The translations under genes and the position numbers were made by a program. A DNA stretch of 64,000 nucleotides. It comes from Eledone cirrhosa. Its lineage: Eukaryota. Location: the NCBI GenBank assembly GCA_964016885.1, contig OZ024740.1:153450001-153514000 (forward strand), given 5' to 3'. The number at the start of each line of letters is the position of its first letter. Position 1 is the stretch's first letter. The notes below the pieces were generated by a model, which worked only from the letters and a program-made list of their open reading frames with translations, did no database searches and was not told the DNA's origin. This document shows positions 12,861-58,524 of this stretch, in pieces.

Positions 12861-15800
12861 GGGATTGACCTCTCTCTCTCTTGGCCTGCTGAAATCGCCT
12901 CTCACCCCCTCACTCTCACTATCATATACGCTGCTCTCACACTCCCCCTCACTCCTTGCCAACCAAATATAAATAAGCCTTGCTACATGGGACTAAACCC
13001 AGAATTTGTCTCCTATTATTGATGGTCGCTTGTTCAGTTTTCTTCTACGAAATGTAACGTACATATCCATTTCTTCTCAACTCTCCACATTCGGTTCATT
13101 CATCTATATATCTTACAATCGCTCAGAATCAAAAAATCGTATTCAAAATTGGCTTTCTATAATTCTGTTCTGTCTCACCGTTGTTCTAAAAATAATTCTG
13201 CAAACTACCTCAAACTACCTCGCAAACTACCCCATACCCCTCCCTCTGGCCCCCACTCTCCACCTTATTATTTGGACCAATCACAAGTAAACGACCTATG
13301 CTAGCACTTCTGGTTGCTTTTTCGATATGATGGATGAACTAGGGAATTTCTGGAGAGTCAGAAGAATCTGGACACCCGAAGACAATGCAAAAGATAACGA
13401 CAAATTCACCTCATGCTGCCGGACGAAAGGGCAAAGCCCCACCTTCTTTATTGCAGCCGCGGATGGCCAACATAACCCCAACCCCATCAACCACACCCCT
13501 CCCTGCACCCCACCCACCAAACGTAATCCAAAACTTCAGAGTTGGTACCATGAATGTAGGGACCTTAAAATGCCGCTCAAACGAGGTTGTAGAAATGCTT
13601 GAACGTAAGGAGGTTGATGTCTGCTGCATCCAAGAGACCAGGTGGAGAGGCGGGTCTGCTAGATTCATTGTGGGTAAAAAACGATGCTATAAGCTTTTCT
13701 GGGTGGGAAATGACAATGGGCTGGGTGGGGTAGGAATCATGTTAGCAGAAAAATGGGTGGATAAGATAATAGACGTAAATAGAGTAAACGACAGAATAAT
13801 TAAAATAAGACTTGTTCTAAATAGAACTACTGTGACGATAATATCTGCGTACGCACCCCAATCCGGACTGCCTGGCGCTATAAAAGACACTTTCTATGAG
13901 ACACTGATGCTCACTACCTCCCAAATAACCGACGGTGACTATATAATTATTGCTGGCGACCTAAATGGTCACGTTGGACAACATTGTGATGGCTATGATG
14001 AAATCCATGGAGGCTATGGGTTTGGTACTAGAAATGAGGAAGGCTCCAGAATCCTGGAATTCTGTGACGCAAATAACCTAACAATCTGTAACACTAACTT
14101 CAAAAAACGAGACAATCACTTGATCACCTACAGATCAGGGGAACATACCAGCCAGGTAGATTATATCCTTACCAGAAGACGTGACAGAGTGACTGTTGTA
14201 AACACTAAATCCCTCCCCCATGAAGAATGCACCTCCCAACATAGACTGATAATTAGCGACCTATAGTCAGGACGAGACGTACTCGACAGCAGAAGAGGAC
14301 TATCCTCAAGAGAAAAATATGGAAGCTAAAGGACACCACAGCCAGAAATAAATTTCAAAGCATATTACTTGATGCTTTCGACAGTAAGGAAGAGCATTTA
14401 GAGTCGGACAGTGGGAATCCTTGAAAGCAAACCTGCTGATGGTGGCAGACGAAGTCTGGGGCCGGAGCAGGCCTATAGGCAGGAGGAGAGTAACATGGTG
14501 GTGGAACAGTAAGGTGGAGGAGTCGATTAAGGCCAAAAAGCAGGCTTGGAAAATATGGCGGGATGGGGGAAGTAGAGAAGACTATCAAGTGGCCAGGAGG
14601 GAAGCTAGGAGACAAGTGTACTTCGCAAGAAGGGAAGCAGAGGAAAGAAAGTTCAAGCATGTTCTACAACGCGAGGACCAAAAACGTGAGGTGTTCAGGA
14701 TTGCTAGGCAATGTGTCAAGGAAAACCGTGATATTGTTGGGGAGAAGTGTGTACTAAATGATGATGGCATGCTCGCCATCACTGACGCTGATAAGAAGGT
14801 CGCTTGGAAGTGTCACTACGAGAGGCTACTAAATGAGGAGAATAAATGGGAGAAGGATAGTCTCCCCCAGATCGATCCAATAGAGGGACCAGCAGTGTTA
14901 GTTGAAGGTAGTATAATAAGTAAGGCAATCAAAGATATGAAGACGGGTAAGGCGGCTGGGCCTTCGGAAATAGTTGCCGAGATGCTGAAGGCCTCTGGAA
15001 CGGTGGGACACACCATGGTCACCCGGATAGTAAACCAAGTCATACAGAATGGGGTGGTTCCGAAGGACTGGCGTAGCAGCATCATCATTAACTGTTACAA
15101 GGGTAAAGGAGACGCCCTAGATAGGAGTAACTATAGAGGGATTAAATTAATCGACCAGGTCATGAAGGTCACGGAAAAAGTAATAGTGCAACTAATCAGA
15201 GAGAGAATTGATCTAGATGAAATGCAGTTCGGGTTTGTGTCAGGCAAAAGTACCACAGACGCTCTTTTCATTGTACGGCAACTACAGGAGAAGTACCTAG
15301 CTAAAAGTAAACCCCTATACTTAGCCTTTGTCGACTTGGAGAAAGCCTTCGACAGAGTCCCCCGTTCCATTATCTGGTGGGCTCTTAGAAAACTAGGTGT
15401 TGACGAATGGCTTGTGAGAGCTATACAAGCCATGTATAAAGAAACAGTGAGCAAGGTTAGAATTAACAACGAATATAGTGAAGAGTTTAGCGTAAAAGCT
15501 GGTGTCCATCAGGGCTCTGTTCTTAGCCACCTACTATTCATTATTGCTCTTCAGGCTATAACAGAGGAGTTCAAAACCGGCTGCCCATGGGAACTCCTAT
15601 ACGCAGATGACCTAACGCTCATAGCTGAATCAATGGCCGAGCTAGAGAAGAAATTCCAAACATGGAAGCATGGCCTAGAATCAAAAGGCCTTAAAATTAA
15701 CATGGCTAAGACTAAAGTTCTAGTTTGTAGGAAAGAAAATAAGGCGCCGGTCCCTTCCGGGAAATGGCCATGCTCGGTGTGTAGGAAAGGCGTAGGTAGA

Positions 15801-17052
15801 AACTCCATTTTATGTCCCAAATGCAAAGTATGGGTGCATAAAAGATGTAGTGGGATCACAGGTAAGCTAACTAAGAACATAGATTTTACATGTGGCCGGT
15901 GCTCTGGTGCAATAAGTAGCAGCAAGTGCCCACAAAATACTAGCTCTTTCAACTGCGCAGAGGGTTCTATAGAAATAGTGGACAGCTTCCGTTACCTGGG
16001 TGACAAAATCAGGAGTGGGGGAGGGTGCTCCGAAAGTACAGTAGCTAGAGTCAGAACTGGATGGAAAAAGTTCAGAGAGCTTATACCACTATTAGCCGCT
16101 AAAGGGTTCTCCATAAAAATGAAAGGCAGGTTGTATGATGCCTGCATACGAACAGCAATGTTGCATGGCAGTGAGACCTGGGCATTGTGTGCAGAGGATA
16201 TACACAGACTAAAGAGGAACGAAGCTTGCATGCTCCGCTGGATGTGTAATAGTAATATACGCGAACGGCAAAGCATTAACGAACTAAGGAAAAAATTAGA
16301 AATAAGAGGGATCAGATGTTTACTCGAGAGAAGGCTACGTTGGTATGGTCACGTGATGCACATGAAAGACGACAGCTGTATAGCAAAGTGCAGGGCAATA
16401 AAGATAGACGGTAGCCACAGAGTAGGCAGACCCAGAAAAACCTGGGACGAGCTGATAAATTCCGACCTCACACACTTACACCTCTCCAAGACAATGTCAC
16501 TGGACCGAGACCTTTGGCGGTACTCAGTAATAGAGAAGACCCGCCTTGCCTAAATACAAAGTAAAATCTACTACAGTCAGTAGGCATCTCTAACAAAATA
16601 CACCCCGTCCCACCACCCCCACCCCATCCACACCGCCCCTTTCAATGTAAAGTTATGTTGGTGCCACGAAATCCAGGCCGAAACAAATGAGATCGTGTAG
16701 GTGTCACGACAAAAAGAACACACAGTCCACGCTGTAATGTGACCGTGTAGGCAACACGGTAAAAACCTCCCAGTCCCACACTGTAAATGTGGTTGGTGTT
16801 AGGAAGGGAATCCAGCTGTAGAAAACCTGCCAAACAGTCCACGCTGTAATGTGGCCGTGTAGGCAACACAGTAAAAACCTCCCAGCCCCACACTGTAAAT
16901 GTGGTTGGTGTTAGGAAGGGCATCCAACTGTAGAAAACCCGCCAGACAGTCCTATGCGAGCAAGACAACCACTCTTGCCTCAAGTGGGAAAACTCCCGTC
17001 CAAACCCATGCAAGCATGGAACACGGACGTTAAACGATGATGATGATGATGA
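12861..17052 (+). mobile_element. Near full-length RTE-clade non-LTR retrotransposon (LINE), antisense to the host gene
   Basis: 5' UTR, APE endonuclease, RT, ~500-bp 3' UTR and (TGA)n tail. Both flanks are (TA)-rich microsatellite. Confidence 0.92.
13385..16553 (+). pseudogene. LINE ORF (APE endonuclease + reverse transcriptase + PHD-like finger) broken by two frameshifts
   Basis: APE motifs TMNVGTL, IQETRW, SAYAPQ, GDLNGHVG, QVDYIL and SQHRLI. A third frame at 14263-14410 bridges the two ORFs (..RKIWKLKD..). RT motifs NYRGIKL, QFGF, FVDLEKAFD, HQGSVLS, YADD and FRYLG, then the RTE C-terminal RLRWYGHV..GRPRKTW. Confidence 0.9.
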
Positions 17053-30340: not shown

Positions 30341-30680
30341 TACTCTCAAGTCTTGAATTATTGTACACACCCACCATTGTTAATTAATTTTTCAGACCAC
30401 CCCCCCCTGCTTATTAAATTTTGCTATCTATCTCCAGCAAAATGTTATAGTAAGTGATTCATATTGATACAACAGCTGGAGAATCTAATAATAATTTTAT
30501 TTAACATTAAAAAAACATTATATACGGCAACAAAAGAACATTACAAGAAATGTCATATTTACGAACGAACACCATGCAATTACCAATTTCCCAACTCCCT
30601 TGTTTATTTCAACCCTCCCGCTTATAAGAATTCAAGCAAATGTTCAAACACCCTTCTCTATTATTTGAGAGCCGAGAGTA
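30341..30680. mobile_element. ~340-bp MITE-like DNA element (second copy)
   Basis: TACTCTC...GAGAGTA inverted termini. Shares cttattaaattttgcta, gatacaacagctgga and acattacaagaaat with 3284-3624. Confidence 0.65.
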
Positions 30681-30806
30681 GGTGAAATTTAGCTCCTGGA
30701 GTAAATTTCTTGAAAGTTAGAAGTCTCTGACACAGGGCAACCAATGGATGTAAAGAAGTAATAAAAGTAAAGGAAAACTTTAAATAATTAGAAAAAGAAA
30801 ATTTAC

Positions 30807-31695
30807 CTTTTGCTGGGTTGATATTAATTCCAGAACGATACAGATATTCCTCAGTCAGCCAGTCTTGATTCCTAATAAATGTCCGTGCGGTGAGGGAAAC
30901 TAAAATACATATGACATTAACTATGATAGCTGTCCGACATATCCAACTGGAATGATAGTGAATGTAGAGTTTTTCGGCACCTTTGGCAACCAGCAAGCAA
31001 AACCCCATGCTGGGTATATAGAGGACACGCTCTGCAATCACAAAGCCTACGTAGAAAAATAGATTTGTGGCCGGAATAAACGGCACAATAATGACAGCCA
31101 ATGAAAAAATAATGCAGTTTAATGAAGATCTAGCATCTTCCTCGACAGTTAATGTGTTTTGATGACTAACAGATTCTGAATTTTTTAATTTTCCTCGGGT
31201 CCCATTTAGCACCCTTGGAGGATGATGGTGTGAATCTGTAGTACCATTTCTATGGATTTTTGATACTTTTAAGCTGTGCGCAACAATGTGTGAATTGTGT
31301 TGTGAGTTATGTTGTGTAAAGTGCAATTCTGTTGGTGTAACCTGTGTGCAGTTTGATATGTGTTTTAGAATATAAATAGCAATGTACAAGAGGCCACTGT
31401 AGAAGACCAAGGTAATGATATTCCGTGAATCTCCCAAGCTCTCAACAAGCGGTATAGAGTTCATTGACCAATCAAAGCTCAGAATGTGAGGACAAAGAAG
31501 CAGCCACAAGTTTAAAGGTAGCAGATAGTGGAATGTCAAAGTTCGTGTGAGGAGGCTTTTAGAGTCAGCCGCAGGATTGTCAGAAGGGGCAAATTCTGGT
31601 GGCTTGCTCCCCATTAAACAAAATCGTAGCAACAGTAAACCAGCTGAGCAGACAAACAACATTAAAAGACCTTCCCGGAGACGACTATATTGCTT
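30807..31695 (-). CDS. TMTC2: TMTC2-like 889-bp exon (transmembrane GT-C region, DUF1736)
   Basis: Within ORF 30661..31776: KPPEFAPSDNPAADSKSLLTRTLTF, LSFDWSM, PFIPATNLFFYVGFVIAERVLYIPSMGFC and RNQDW, all TMTC family motifs. Acceptor ctttttcag, donor AAAG|gtaaat. Confidence 0.95.
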
Positions 31696-31794
31696 CTGAA
31701 AAAGGAAAAGAAAGAAAATATATATAAGAATTATATATATAGATATATACATATACATACATACATACACACACACACATGAAAGAATACAATA

Positions 31795-32165
31795 GCAAAT
31801 ACAGCAGCAGAAATGAGGTTCTTTGGAACAACGTTACTCGATAGAGTGTTTAGCTTGGAGATCAGAGAGTCACTCCAGGTAGAGCCACTACTTCACCAAA
31901 TTGAAAGATCACACCTCCAACAATATAGGCATGTGGTTAGAATGTCTGAAGGAAGAATCGATGGACAGATTTTTACGAGCAAAACCAGCCGGCAGGAGAG
32001 CCAGGAGTAGACTCCGAGCAAGATGGTTGGATAACATCCATGAGCTCGGCGGGTCACACTGAGATCCAGCTGAATCACTTGGAGACGGTTGCTTCTGACA
32101 GTACCTAATGGAAGGAGTACTTAAGAACTCTTCCCTTATGACCTTCCCAGGAATAGGTGGGTTAA
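31795..32165 (+). mobile_element. 3' fragment of the second RTE-type LINE family
   Basis: Similar to 3870-4320 (acgttactcgataga...gatcagagag...ggataacatccatgagc). The tail runs into a purine-rich GAA-derived array. Confidence 0.78.
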
Positions 32166-33948: not shown

Positions 33949-35528
33949 TTGACAGAGTCCCCCAATCCATTATCTGGTGGGCACTTAAAAAACTAGGTGT
34001 AGATGAATGTATAAAGAAACAGTCAGCAAGGTTAGAATTAACAACGAATATAGTTAAGAGTTTAGTGTAAAAGTTGGTGTTCATCAGGGCTCCGTCCTTA
34101 GCCCCCTCCTATTTATTATTGCCCTTTAGGCTATAACAGAGGAGTTCAAGACCGGCTACCCATGGGAACTCCTATACGCAGATGATCTAACGCTCATAGC
34201 TGAATCAATGCCTGAACTAGAGAAGAAATTCCAAACATGGAAGCATGGCCTAGAATCAAAAGGCCTTAAAATTAACCTGTCTAAGACTAAAGTTCTAGTA
34301 TGTAGGAAGGAAAATAGGGCACTGGTCCCATCTGGGTAATGGCCATGCTCAGTGTGTAGGAAAGGAGTAGGCAGAAACTCCATTTTATGTCCCCAATGCT
34401 AAGTATGGGTGGATAAAAGATGTAGTAGGATCACAGGTAAGCTAACTAAGAATATAGATCTTATATGTGGCCGGTGCTCAGGTGCACTAAGTAGCAGCAA
34501 GTGCCTACAGAATACTAGCTCATTCCATTGCACAGATGGTTCTATAGAAATAGTGGACACCTTCTGTTACCTGGGTGACAAAACCAGCAGTGGTGGAGGG
34601 TGCTCTGAAAGTACAGTAGCTAGAGTCAGAACGGGATGGAAAAAGTTCAGAGAGCTTATACCACTATTGGCCGCTAAAGGTTTCTATCTAAAAATGAAAG
34701 GCAGGCTGTATGATGCCTGCATACAAACAGCAATGTCACATGGCAGTGAGGCTTGGGCATTGTGTGCAGAGGATCTATGCAGACTGGAGAGGAACGAAGC
34801 TTGCATGCTCCGTTGGATGTGTAATAGTAATATAGGTGAACGGCAAAGCATAAATGAACTAAGCGAGAAATTAGGAATAAGAGGGATCAGCTGCTGTTTA
34901 CGCGAGGGAAGACTACGTTGGTATGGACACGTGATGCGCATGAAAGACGACAGCTGTATAAAAAAGTGCAGGGCGATCAAAATAGACGGTAGCCACGGAG
35001 TAGGCAGACCCAGAAAACCTGGGACGACTTGATAAATTCCGACCTCACACACTTACACTTCTCCAAGACAATGTCTCTGGACCGAGATCTTTGGTGCTAC
35101 ACAGTAATACAGAAGACCCGCCTTGCCTAAGTACAAAGCGAAACCTACAGTCAGTAGGCACCTCTTAACGAAAATACACCTCCCCCCGTCCCACTACCCC
35201 CACCCCATCCACACTACTCCTTTCGATGTAAAGTTATGTTGGTACGACAACATCCAGTCCTAAATAAATGAGGTCGTGTAGGTGTCACGACAAAAAAAAA
35301 AAACACAGTCCACGCTGTAATGTGGCCGTGTAGGTAACACGGTAAAAACCTCCCAGTCCACACTGTAAATGTGGTTGGTGCTAGGAAGGGCATCCAGTCG
35401 TAGAAAACTCACCAGACAGTCCTATACGAGCAAGAGAACCAATCTTGCCTCAAGTGGGAAAATACCCACCCAAACCCATGCTAGAGTGGAAGATGGACGT
35501 TAAACGATGAAGATGATGATGATGATGA

Positions 35529-43855: not shown

Positions 43856-45360
43856 ATGTATGTAGGTAAATGAAGGAGTCAGGACCCCGACAGCTGAGCT
43901 CCTGCCATTACAACAGCTAGTTCTGAACTAGCTGCAGCACAACCGTTGTGCTCCTGACTCTTTCATATTACCACACTCTACAACCCCAAGTATTGAGTAT
44001 ACTGGTAAGTAATAGTCTAACAGAATTTTACTGCATAAATTCTGATATACACGTATATATATACACACACACACATCTTTATATACACACACACACATCT
44101 TTATATACACTCACAAACATATATATTTATACATCATTTCACCTACCAATGTTTACAGGGATTGCACATACATACATGCATATATGTGTGTGTGTATATG
44201 AGTGGCTGTGTGTGACTGTTTATATATTCACAAACTCTTATACACTCTAGACACGTGTTTTCACCATCAACACATGTAAGCCTAACCAAGACGGATGGCC
44301 CTTTGCAAGCTCTCCCAGACTGTTTGGGTTGATGTATTCTAATGAGGTATGCTCCTGTTAATTCACCAATAGCGTGATCTCAACTTGTTTTAACATTGGT
44401 AGCACCACATCCATGCTTGCCAATTATTGCTAATTTTACATCTAATCCAACAAATTTCCTCTTCTAAGCATTTCCACCACTCTTATTAGTGATAATCACT
44501 TATTCAGAACTGATGATAATAAATTAAGTGTTTGGTAATGTAGTAACCTGCCAATTAATATTGCTTTGAATGGCACAGTTCTCAAATTATCATGGTTAAT
44601 AAATTGACGCTAAATACTAGAAAAACACTATATATATATATATTATTTAAGGCCTCCAATCAGTCACTAATGACCATGGTTTTGCACCTAGAAAGTTTCC
44701 CTCCAAGGCACAAGCCTGAGCAAGGTTTGTTTGTAGAAGACCAGCAGTCAATATATATATATATATAAACATAGATAGAATACACAGACATAATGGAGAA
44801 AAACTTATTAAATATCACGTTTCTAAAGCAATGGACTCCATTATTTTTCATTTAATATATGTAACATTGACCCCAATAAATCGAATTCATATATGCAGGA
44901 AATGACAAAGGAACACAAGTACAGGAGGGCAACTGTCCTGGGAAACTCCATCCAATTCATGCAAGCAAGGAAAAGCAGAGATAAAGTAAAAAGGAAGATG
45001 TTGTATGTGTGTATGTGTGTGTGTGTTGAATAGTTATAATTTCAATAGGAGTCCCTGCTGTTTCAACTTGTTTCTACAAGTGAAAAATGTACCTTATTTA
45101 GTTTAGCCATAAAAAAAAACATGCCAGGGTCTCATCTAATTCACGCAAGTATGGAAAAGATTGACATAAAAAAGATGGTAATAATAAAATATACATGGCT
45201 GTGTGGTTACAGAGCTTGTTTTGCAACCATGTGGTTCTGTGATCAACATTTTGGCTGTCTTCTATAATAACCTCCAGAGTGGAATTTCATAGATAAAAAC
45301 TGCAGATGCCCATCATGTGTATGTGTGTACATTATATATATATATATATATATACAATAC

Positions 45361-46112
45361 ATAAACAGAGAAAGCCTTAAGCGATACTCCGACCAACTCC
45401 ATCTCACTCAACAAACATTAGGATATACCTAAGTATTATCCCAATTAAGTGTTTGGGGTGCTAACTAATCAGTATTACGTGGATAGCTGGTTGTATTATT
45501 TTATATGAGACATTATTAAATAAATATCTCTTTCCTTCCAGACGGCTGTTTCGTTATAAGATTTCTACAAATTGGGATAAATAATTTCCAGGTTATGTAG
45601 AAACTTGTATATAATCCATAGTTTTATACACAAGCGGGCTCTCATAAACTCATCAGTGGATGCCCAAATAATATCGATATAAGAATTATATCGACATTAA
45701 TAGAAGAGACTGGTAGATTAGAAAATCCAACATTCCTCCCAAAGATAAAATATACACTGTCCCCAAAAGGGTAAAGGGAGGTCATCTTAAAATAAAACAA
45801 TATACACGCTGGTCATTTAAACCCATTAGGTATTAATACGTGTATAAGAACTCAATTGGAAATTTAAAAGAATAACCACATGTATACACAACCAATGCAC
45901 ACACAGAGATATTAAAACATAATAAATACATGCATGGATCATCCATATACACACATAGCTATTCTCTAAGGCTAAATCAGACATGGGATACAAGGAAGAT
46001 CAATCAGTATTTCATATAAAAAATAATAATAAGAGAGTCGTACCTTATATCTGGAAATCATATCAGGCCACCAAGAGTATATATTCAATAAATAAACAGA
46101 GAAAGCCTTAAG

Positions 46113-46117
<5 letters not shown>
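45361..46117 (-). mobile_element. Non-coding, terminally redundant hammerhead-bearing element (Penelope pLTR / retrozyme-like)
   Basis: 26-bp direct repeat ataaacagagaaagccttaagcgata at 45361 and 46092 (period 731). Hammerhead inside, (TA)n on both sides, no credible ORF. Confidence 0.65.
45537..45660 (-). ncRNA. Type I hammerhead ribozyme with a large branched domain II
   Basis: UCCA CUGAUGA GUU(U)AUGAGA ...[two hairpins]... UCUUAUAAC GAAA CAGCCG UC^ UGGA. Confidence 0.78.
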
Positions 46118-46161
<44 letters not shown>

Positions 46162-47413: not shown

Positions 47414-48329
47414 GATTTATTTAATATAGAAATGAGTTCTACAGAACTAGAACTGTTTCTTTCATTTGAAATTGTCAGATCTACTCACTTTGAAGTTATT
47501 TCTATATGGAATAAATAGTTGTTTCTACTTTTGGCACATAATGTCCCTTCCCTAGTTAATGTATTGGGTACCTTATTTAACTGTGGTCCCTTTCCATTCC
47601 TCTTCGGAAAACCATCCCCCCCCCCCACACACACACGAGAAAAAGGTGGGTAACACTTGGGTGTTGATAGAGAATGTTAGCTGATAACCTTGTTGAGAAC
47701 ATTAACAACAGATGGTCAGTCTATCAGTCCATTTTGGGTTCTAATTTTAAGGGTGGAGCTGCATGATCTGATGTCTGTGAGGTGTTGATTGATACACATG
47801 ATCACTGTATGGTGAATAGTAAATTATAGTAGTATTGATGGTGATGGCAGTGGTAGTGGAATGGATGGCAGCAGTGGTAGTGGGGTGGGGGATGGAGGGT
47901 AGCGGTGATAGGGGTGATGATATTTGGGATGGCCCACCATGTGGTTATGATAGAATGGTAGTGATGACATTTTCTTTTTGTTTTTGGTAGTGATGGTGAT
48001 GGCAACAGTAGTAGTAGTAGTAGTAATAATAGTAGTAGTGTTTACCCACCCCTACTATTCAGGTTAACTCTAGCTGTGAAGATTTATCTGAGATAAGTCC
48101 CACCTCTCTAGGGGAATTGCATCATTAAATATGTCTTTCTCTTTTGAAAACAGAAAGGTGTAATTGTGTGAAGATTTGGCTGCTATTTCTAGCAGATCAA
48201 GCAACCATGTAGAGTACTGTTCCTGTTCCCAAAGTGTGTTCCAAGAAGGCCCAGACTTCTGTAAAAAAAACTGTTTGGGGTGCTGCAAATAAATTTATAA
48301 AAATTTGATTTTTTTAAAGAGCATTTGAT

Positions 48330-57578: not shown

Positions 57579-57768
57579 AACCTTCCATCATAATTTCATT
57601 TTAGAAATTGTTCTTAAGTAACTGAAACCAGTAGATTTGAACTAAAAGGTCTGCTCAATCAGCATTGATATAGAGCTACAACACTACCTTAACAAACCAG
57701 TCTAATCTATGTCACCATGGTAACGTAGACATGATAATGATGATAATGATGACTAAAAACATACATAC

Positions 57769-58390
57769 CAGTTTGAAAATTTGAAGAAAAGTCTTTGGTG
57801 ATATTTTCTGTTGAACAAACACCTCATAGATGATGCATATACCCAGAACAGTAATCCCATGTTCTTTGGTCAACATGCTCATGGTAGCCAAAATAGTAGA
57901 CAAAAACAAGTACAAAAGCCTCTTGCTATAATTTGGTGTCATTTCAGAGTTGGTAAATTCTTTAGGGTCTCCATCACAATAGCCATCTCTGTAGTAGATA
58001 TATTGACGGTAACTAAGAAAGCTGAGTATGAAAAACAAACATGCTCCAACATCAGCTCGACCTACAATGCCAGCAACAGCTTCAGTGTGAATTGGGTGTG
58101 TGGCGAACAAGAGTCCTGCTAGAAGTGTCGATAGACTCCTTTGGAGGAAAACACTAGACATGTGAGTGAAGACAACTGTGACTAATGAGTGAAGTAAGAC
58201 ATTGGTAAAATGATAACTCCAAGGGTTTAGCTTACTGAAGAAGTGATTCAGACGGAAAGAGAGGACACATATTGGCCTATATGATTTGTGTGAACCACTG
58301 TTGACCAATGGTGTTCCCCAGAAATCACTGTAAAAAATGTTTTGGATTGGTGTCTCAGGAAGGAGGTCGGGGTTCTTCTGAACAGCTCGA
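57769..58390 (-). CDS. TMTC2: TMTC2-like 622-bp exon (N-terminal luminal loop and TM helices; probable second coding exon)
   Basis: Within ORF 57712..58413: RAVQKNPDLLPETP..DFWGTPLVNSGSHKSYRPICVLSFRLN, HPIHTEAVAGIVGRAD and KEHGIT, which are hallmark TMTC2 motifs. Acceptor tctttacag, donor CTG|gtatgt. Confidence 0.95.
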
Positions 58391-58524
58391 CTGTAAAGAA
58401 AAAAGAAAAACAAAATTAAGAAACAAATTATAAATCAATTATTAAACCAATAAATATTTTTTTAGTTATACTTTTGTCGTAAGGGTCAGTGATCAGGTTG
58501 TAGTGATGTTAACCATACAGCACC

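Follow-up and report, generated by a model that had tools for sequence, protein, structure and literature searches.

Background

Hammerhead ribozymes are already known from Penelope-like elements. The minimal type I forms described in PMC4209133 lie near the 3' end of the element, mostly in solo truncated copies, and combine a short helix I with a long helix II, a small loop II and a palindromic helix III that needs a partner; they carry an extra base between A9 and 10.1 and a G10.1-C11.1 pair, and their cleavage as dimers is reviewed in PMC6765202. Animal non-LTR retrozymes (PMC7229834; bioRxiv 10.64898/2026.07.22.740005) are non-coding, low-GC tandem units of ~170-400 nt with one type I hammerhead each, which occur as monomers, dimers and multimers and have been proposed to be non-autonomous Penelope derivatives. 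Hydra-clade Penelope-like elements prefer (TA)n targets, and canonical hammerheads have been reported for Hydra (PMC8557442). The passages of that paper dealing with Naiad elements flag 'HHR_half_core' cases, two of them from cephalopods, in which the core halves are 35-50 nt apart; these are said not to fit descriptors, and no structure is proposed for them there. In pseudoknotted hammerheads, a short helix is able to join the stem I and stem II sides (PMC3088659). The role of hammerheads in Penelope-like elements is stated as open in PMC8557442, and cleavage was dispensable in vitro in the experiments reported in PMC11167929.

The motif considered here comes from Eledone cirrhosa. Like the minimal Penelope hammerheads, it is of type I, with a 4-bp helix I, a long helix II (9 bp), a palindromic helix III needing a partner, a position near the 3' end of its element and a predominance of solo truncated copies. 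Unlike theirs, its loop II is a branched domain of 78 nt that contains two hairpins supported by covariation and a linker with the potential to pair with the stem I flank. There is no extra base between A9 and 10.1, and only 34 of 128 copies have G-C as the 10.1-11.1 pair at the foot of stem II (26 family-A rows having been scored G-C after correction of the bulge register), against 30 with A-U and 57 with U-U, the last being shared with one axolotl retrozyme form. The repeat that carries it resembles the retrozymes in composition, tandem organisation and one hammerhead per unit, whereas its units are longer (695-770 or ~990 nt), its loop II is branched and its ends are clearly of Penelope type. 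With the Hydra clade it shares (TA)n targets, and with the pseudoknotted hammerheads a short helix that could join the two stems, although here the partner strand is a junction linker that follows a stem II of 9 bp, and the same helix is in competition with the active fold. Relative to the Naiad cases, the core halves are still further apart (97 nt in the window motif) and the fold is backed by covariation. In the literature searched, including PMC10085705 and PMC13725137, no branched loop II was described for an animal hammerhead, the Naiad cases being the nearest; work on dimer variants and Terminons, and supplementary drawings beyond the scope of the search, may show long-loop forms. What is new is the conserved branched form, its scale and a candidate switch.

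Architecture of the motif

The window is a stretch of 64,000 nucleotides (GCA_964016885.1, contig OZ024740.1, positions 153,450,001 to 153,514,000), within which all coordinates below are given. On its minus strand, positions 45660-45537 read as a type I hammerhead in which loop II is replaced by a predicted 78-nt domain containing two hairpins. Stem I is formed by UCCA (45657-45660; outer pair U-A in 80 and C-G in 45 of 128 copies) and UGGA (45537-45540). The core sequence CUGAUGA (C3-A9) occupies 45650-45656 and is followed by the 5' strand of stem II (45640-45649), for which family comparison indicates 9 bp with one bulged U; the 3' strand lies at 45553-45561. Between them are the 5-nt linker GCCCG (45635-45639), the 31-nt hairpin A (45604-45634), in which the letters vary while the structure is kept, and the 42-nt hairpin B (45562-45603), consisting of a near-invariant CUACA/UGUAG stem, an internal loop and an inner 3-bp stem. 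The remaining block, 45541-45552, comprises GAAA (45552-45549), stem III (CAGCCG, 45548-45543), a self-complementary stem that reads ACAGCCGU in this copy and ACGGCCGU elsewhere in the family, and UC (U16.1 and C17; 45542-45541), so that the predicted cut falls between 45541 and 45540. Just upstream of stem I, UGGGC (45662-45666) is predicted from the sequence and the family alignment to be the 5' strand of a pseudoknot or competing helix, the 3' strand of which is the linker.

Each part named by the initial annotation, including the predicted cut, was found on the minus strand where that annotation had put it; the linker had been omitted there. The 'near-palindromic' CAGCCG reported there is indeed present in this copy, as a rare variant; the perfect palindrome ACGGCCGU is found in 28 of the 30 closest loci. 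Standard searches overlook the motif: Rfam gave no match in the window at the gathering score and, when relaxed to E 10, 21 weak matches of which none was to a hammerhead family. A purpose-made long-loop descriptor returned only the motif at 45537-45660 and one short-loop candidate from the 64-kb window. Both engineered and natural hammerheads tolerate large loop II inserts, hence activity here would be no surprise. Taken alone, the window motif folds unremarkably, with a z score of -1.45 and a minimum-energy fold that mispairs the core.

Two other features of the window can be recorded. A short-loop hammerhead-like match at 12465-12435 (minus strand) has a 6-bp stem I, a 5-bp stem II, a palindromic ACUAGU and the triplet GUC. 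At 47415-47483 (minus strand) lies a degenerate copy of another common small repeat, which in its copy at locus L141 reads as a short-stem hammerhead-like sequence (CUGAAGA...GAAAC).

Conservation of the core and covariation of the helices

Conservation was assessed in 100 copies taken in order along contig C1 by the 3' block of the repeat alone, of which the 40 with an upstream marker span the motif; these were chosen without using the catalytic core. C3, U4, G5, G8, A9, G12, A13 and A14 are invariant in all 40, and A6 and A15.1 are kept in 39. By contrast with these fixed positions, N7 is free (U in 27, A in 10 and C in 3), and the cut triplets read from the alignment are GUU (25), GUC (14) and GUA (1), never GUG. 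The hammerhead rule CUGANGA, GAAA, NUH, in which only N7 and H17 may vary, is thus followed in 39-40 of 40 copies at each fixed position. Two patterns spanning the hammerhead matched the genome (G000) 2,851 and 956 times, against 0 and 0 matches for the reversed controls.

The alignment used for covariation contained 19 sequences. Of 24 cluster representatives, 18 were kept after exclusion of six that had deletions or were truncated at the 5' end, and locus L005, which has no 5' flank, was added. From this alignment RNAalifold recovers stems I to III as well as hairpins A and B unaided, with double changes at 12 of 35 pairs. For the structure as named above, 14 of 42 pairs are changed on both sides: 1/4 in stem I, 3/9 in stem II, 5/10 in hairpin A, 2/7 and 1/3 in the outer and inner stems of hairpin B, and 2/4 in stem III. 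The covariation score is 0.221, against 0.125 for shuffled alignments and at most 0.069 for slid ones, while the number of further pair types in the named structure does not exceed that in shuffles. Because the subfamilies are related, these double changes represent few independent events. A 2-nt compensatory indel in hairpin A was ruled out, as the alignment shows substitutions. Family covariation supports three helices around the core, with helix I open, and the paralogues, in which the initial annotation had proposed that the fold be checked, keep both the core and the nested helices. The hammerhead with a branched two-hairpin loop II is therefore a real architecture, maintained across the family with covariation.

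That the motif is a chance look-alike, or satellite DNA functionless at the RNA level, is hardly credible: the single-sequence z score, the AT-richness and one ~64-kb tandem array would suit such an origin, yet every helix except the candidate pseudoknot covaries, the core shows its own conservation pattern and the copies are dispersed and 5'-truncated.

The carrier repeat

Beyond the view of the initial annotation, the motif belongs to one copy, decayed and solo, of a large and probably Penelope-like repeat. Comparison with 30 loci defines a full 731-bp non-coding unit at 45355-46085 (minus strand), the 3' end of which is fixed at 45355; it has no counterpart of a 28-nt block that most family-A copies have. 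Upstream is a partial copy of the last ~32 bp of the unit (46086-46117, minus strand), forming a pseudo-LTR-like partial tandem, and (TA)n runs flank the whole on the 3' side, the target (45332-45354), and on the 5' side (46115-46160). The conserved 3'-terminal block (45355-45430, minus strand) has 6,491 exact matches in the genome and none in the control, which puts the copy number at a minimum of 6,491, in several subfamilies whose divergence amounts to 15-38% of positions per 50-column window. A repeat search gave 2,378 candidates, of which the 40 scored are 95-100% identical. The hexamer TTGAGT, starting at 45411 and standing ~57-61 nt ahead of the fixed 3' end, is the putative start of reverse transcription.

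Across the 30 loci the 3' end is fixed and the 5' ends are ragged; partial tandems of differing length are seen in the window and at L002, L004, L018 and L022-L024, and an inverted junction at L028. Among 75 copies examined, 9 run on into the next unit; (TA)4, a sequence found at 9.8% of random window positions, terminates 63 of the 66 that remain. Tandem units measure 695-767 bp or, with an internal duplication, ~990 bp (989-993), contain one hammerhead each and occur as dimers and one trimer. No ORF of note is present in the window unit or the tandem units; a supposed ORF remnant, 'PNG-LND', was rejected as its frame is not continuous. Whole units fold with z scores of -5.1 to -8.2 (four of four units, 12 shuffles each). 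An array of ~64 kb at C2:312,267,000-312,331,000 (L322-L327, L360 and L361), which holds at least 38 of the matches, is composed of 747- and ~1,000-bp units that share a hairpin B change and have intact cores where read, at the array ends; it is likely to be a source locus or a satellite. A 3' end that is fixed, 5' ends that are not, partial tandems, inversions and insertion at (TA)n indicate, by the marks of Penelope-like elements given in PMC8557442 and PMC11167929, a non-autonomous element of this kind, of retrozyme type.

Further details of the units were observed. At L111/L112 (C1:62.90 Mb), two subfamilies form a mixed tandem (C-C-A), which suggests insertion beside existing copies or template switching. 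An internal motif, ATTGAGTTCTT, with a hairpin at 45856-45839 (minus strand), resembles the 3'-terminal module, and the duplication in the 990-bp units restarts ~60 nt past this motif with the same junction sequence as the unit start.

Taking these results together, we put at roughly 0.82 the probability that this is a type I hammerhead with an intact core and a conserved two-hairpin branch as loop II, on a protein-free, multi-copy repeat of ~700-770 bp that is likely to be a Penelope-like passenger, and that it is predicted to cut only in pairs.

In the surroundings of the window copy, exons of a TMTC-type O-mannosyltransferase lie at 30661-31833 and 57712-58434 (minus strand), the first with a Pfam TMTC (DUF1736) match; the upstream exon, which we take to belong to this putative gene, matched no solved structure. 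The hammerhead copy is probably in an intron of the gene, on the transcribed (sense) strand. A LINE with endonuclease and reverse-transcriptase frames, presumably RTE-type, is found at 13343-16553 (plus strand), with a fragment at 34403-35032.

A candidate helix between the stem I flank and the linker

UGGGC, just 5' of stem I, is complementary to the linker GCCCR, and both are constant while their flanks vary; GGG and CCC in particular are unchanged next to variable bases. In the 19-sequence alignment 77% of the cells of this helix are paired. When folding is modelled without pseudoknots, the helix competes with the ribozyme; in 15 copies the alternative lies between -7.8 and +2.8 kcal/mol relative to the hammerhead fold. 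In 13 of the 15 copies it has a probability of at least 0.95 at the stage when the 3' strand of stem II has yet to be transcribed, and in two copies with a natural break in the helix stems I and II fold at ~0.9. The helix may accordingly be read from these models as either an activating pseudoknot or an off-switch.

The first reading takes UGGGC/GCCCR for a normal activating pseudoknot that joins stems I and II, with the hairpins limited to presenting the linker or binding a protein; it falls a little short of even odds. About 40% of natural hammerheads use such a pseudoknot, including one of 5 bp in the human C10 ribozyme, according to PMC3088659, and the 5-bp core overlaps neither stem I nor the first 9 pairs of stem II, with GGG and CCC constant. 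Set against this, none of the five pairs shows a double change; in several subfamilies the helix cannot grow to 6-7 bp unless it recruits bases of stems I and II, and it competes with the hammerhead fold as well; and a stem I of 4 bp, much shorter than the 9-bp stem II, would be a poor fit with the crystal geometry. For this helix we lean towards a possible role in timing. A search for more distant relatives with a different stem I, in which the pseudoknot might covary, produced 39 matches, all judged by eye to be truncated or mutated known subfamilies or noise.

Stem III and the state of the window copy

Stem III is self-complementary in every subfamily with different letters: among 128 copies, ACAAUUGU occurs in 33, ACGGCCGU in 30, ACGAGUCGU in 25, ACG(A)GACGUCCGU in 18 and ACGAUCGU in 15. 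It is too tight to close within one molecule. Cleavage is predicted solely for copies joined in pairs by the palindrome, in line with the dimeric Penelope hammerheads, in which helix I is short, helix II long and helix III palindromic (PMC4209133). At 45547 the window copy carries A in place of the G seen in 28 of 30 close loci, and the predicted self-duplex falls from -14.1 kcal/mol for the family palindrome to -1.7 kcal/mol. In an outside sample, the family base at this position accounts for more than 99% of depth; two contig runs of unclear kind, from one sample, contain the family and its stem III variants. A second change, G at 45643 in the 5' strand of stem II, is private to the window copy (A in 29 of 30 loci). 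Being solo and having a damaged palindrome, the window copy is probably close to inactive on these predictions.

The search for a helper and other long-insert hammerheads

Among 30 GIY-YIG, 20 long-ORF and Hydra family E loci, a small share of the ~10,600 GIY-YIG and 65,000 Hydra-type candidates, none proved to be an autonomous element with homology to the unit. When a profile of eight units was run on the GIY-YIG, Neptune-like and other loci, it detected only further copies of its own family, and two intact Hydra-clade tandems gave no match to it. One copy has a Neptune-like ORF 2.1 kb upstream, which was rejected as a helper, being a separate fragment. Several Neptune-like families with frames of up to ~940 codons were also seen (L196-L215), mostly with no clear adjacent hammerhead by the filter used.

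Family E (L358:4358-7284, C2:170.43 Mb; also L359 and L128-L130) is a young family that has an intact 830-codon Hydra-clade Penelope-like frame with RWR, DKT, CxCX5C, CxxC and CxH motifs, and forms ~6-kb tandems, all 150 scored matches being 99-100% identical. In contrast to the canonical hammerheads reported for Hydra (PMC8557442), its hammerhead has a long, 116-nt rod-like stem II insert. Within the insert, donor-like AG|GUAUGU and acceptor-like UUGUACAUAG sequences could mark a small intron. Family E has no sequence homology to the unit; TTGAGT stands ~55 nt ahead of its 3' end, compared with 57-61 nt in the unit, and a 16-nt motif common to the two does not rise above shuffles, which score as high in 16, 26 and 40 of 100 cases for three units. 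The helper is likely to be of the Hydra clade.

The genome contains many long loop II inserts, a point likewise outside the scope of the initial annotation. A loose pattern allowing 40-130 nt between the core halves has 57,055 matches against 3,903 in the control; among the first 100 of the 57,055, ~22 are, by eye, a false match inside a LINE ORF. The difference between pattern and control implies that some elements reported as hammerhead-less may carry long-insert hammerheads. In 17 listed loci and L358, stem III is fully self-complementary in 16 of 22 motifs and stem I has at least 4 bp in 12 of 22. Many unrelated families (L131-L144) have hammerhead-like motifs with 45-119-nt stem II inserts and a palindromic stem III, often as inverted pairs.

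Insertion ends and alternative roles of the fold

Of 90 copies still running at that point, 16 have their 5' end in the 30 nt that follow the cut site, compared with 5.3 expected (Poisson p 1.5e-4; ~2.5e-3 corrected over 17 windows); the 100 copies used for this count include some that share a locus. Windows equally rich in TA 4-mers contain 0 of 62 and 3 of 56 ends. Most of the 16 lie 7-18 nt from the cut site, and only 2 of 100 copies end within 1 nt of it. The excess may also reflect polymerase stalling at the foot of an extended stem I, or TA micro-homology. The other 74 of 90 copies extend past the site, which makes an uncut or rejoined RNA the main template; uncut RNA was likewise the main template for the anole element in vitro (PMC11167929). 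Family E shows no such excess, with ~3 of 100 breaks after the cut and 4 of 97 before it, counted by eye.

These ends bear on the proposal that what maintains the fold is its use as a signal for packaging or protein binding, with negligible cleavage in vivo. The copies that pass the cut site and the family E distribution are in keeping with it, as are the poor cutting of Penelope hammerheads in vitro (PMC4209133) and, in the experiments described in PMC11167929, core mutants that left in vitro insertion unchanged and RNA without ends at the site. It is nevertheless unlikely, given the excess of ends after the cut site and the fact that all catalytic positions persist across divergent subfamilies, together with the NUH rule and the self-complementarity of stem III.

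Still less probable is that hairpin B hides a 3' splice site, composed of a branch-like UACAUAAC, a pyrimidine run and UAG, such that splicing remodels or removes the ribozyme. The near-invariant CUACA/UGUAG and the pyrimidine-rich loop fit this idea, and a GU-containing donor-like site occurs ~40 nt into the unit; in Drosophila Penelope, an intron end abuts the hammerhead (PMC4209133). However, base pairing alone accounts for the letters of hairpin B, and inspection by eye of 69 genomic matches whose base preceding the AG is changed reveals no spliced junction, all being point changes, small deletions or truncations.

Proposed cycle and implications

In the favoured interpretation, a hammerhead carried by a Penelope-like passenger and cutting in pairs, tandem copies would be transcribed into structured RNA, and a Penelope-type protein acting in trans, most likely from the abundant TA-targeting Hydra clade, would nick (TA)n DNA. 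Reverse transcription would start inside the RNA, ~185 nt downstream of the cut site, and would usually pass an uncut or rejoined hammerhead, giving rise to 5'-truncated, partial-tandem insertions; an internal start and protein-assisted cleavage are described in PMC11167929. The UGGGC/GCCCR helix, linking the stem I flank to the branch, would be the first to fold as the RNA is transcribed, the 78-nt branch holding back closure of stem II, and would most likely set when the ribozyme is on.

A more speculative extension, possible rather than probable, is that the branch acts as a timer, the early UGGGC/GCCCR helix holding the ribozyme off until a partner or helper refolds it; that long-insert hammerheads form a major hidden class; and that the pile-up of 5' ends records cleavage in vivo. 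If there is such a timer, the element itself would control whether its RNA is cut or copied through. If there is such a class, it would comprise tens of thousands of sites in many families, including an active autonomous Hydra-clade element, and would be invisible to current models.

The family offers a naturally occurring hammerhead in which loop II is large, branched and covarying and in which one helix is a candidate for regulation; its thousands of copies in several subfamilies are ready-made variants. Short-loop descriptors and Rfam undercount ribozymes of this kind, and the ends of insertions offer a way of asking, from DNA alone, about ribozyme cutting in vivo.
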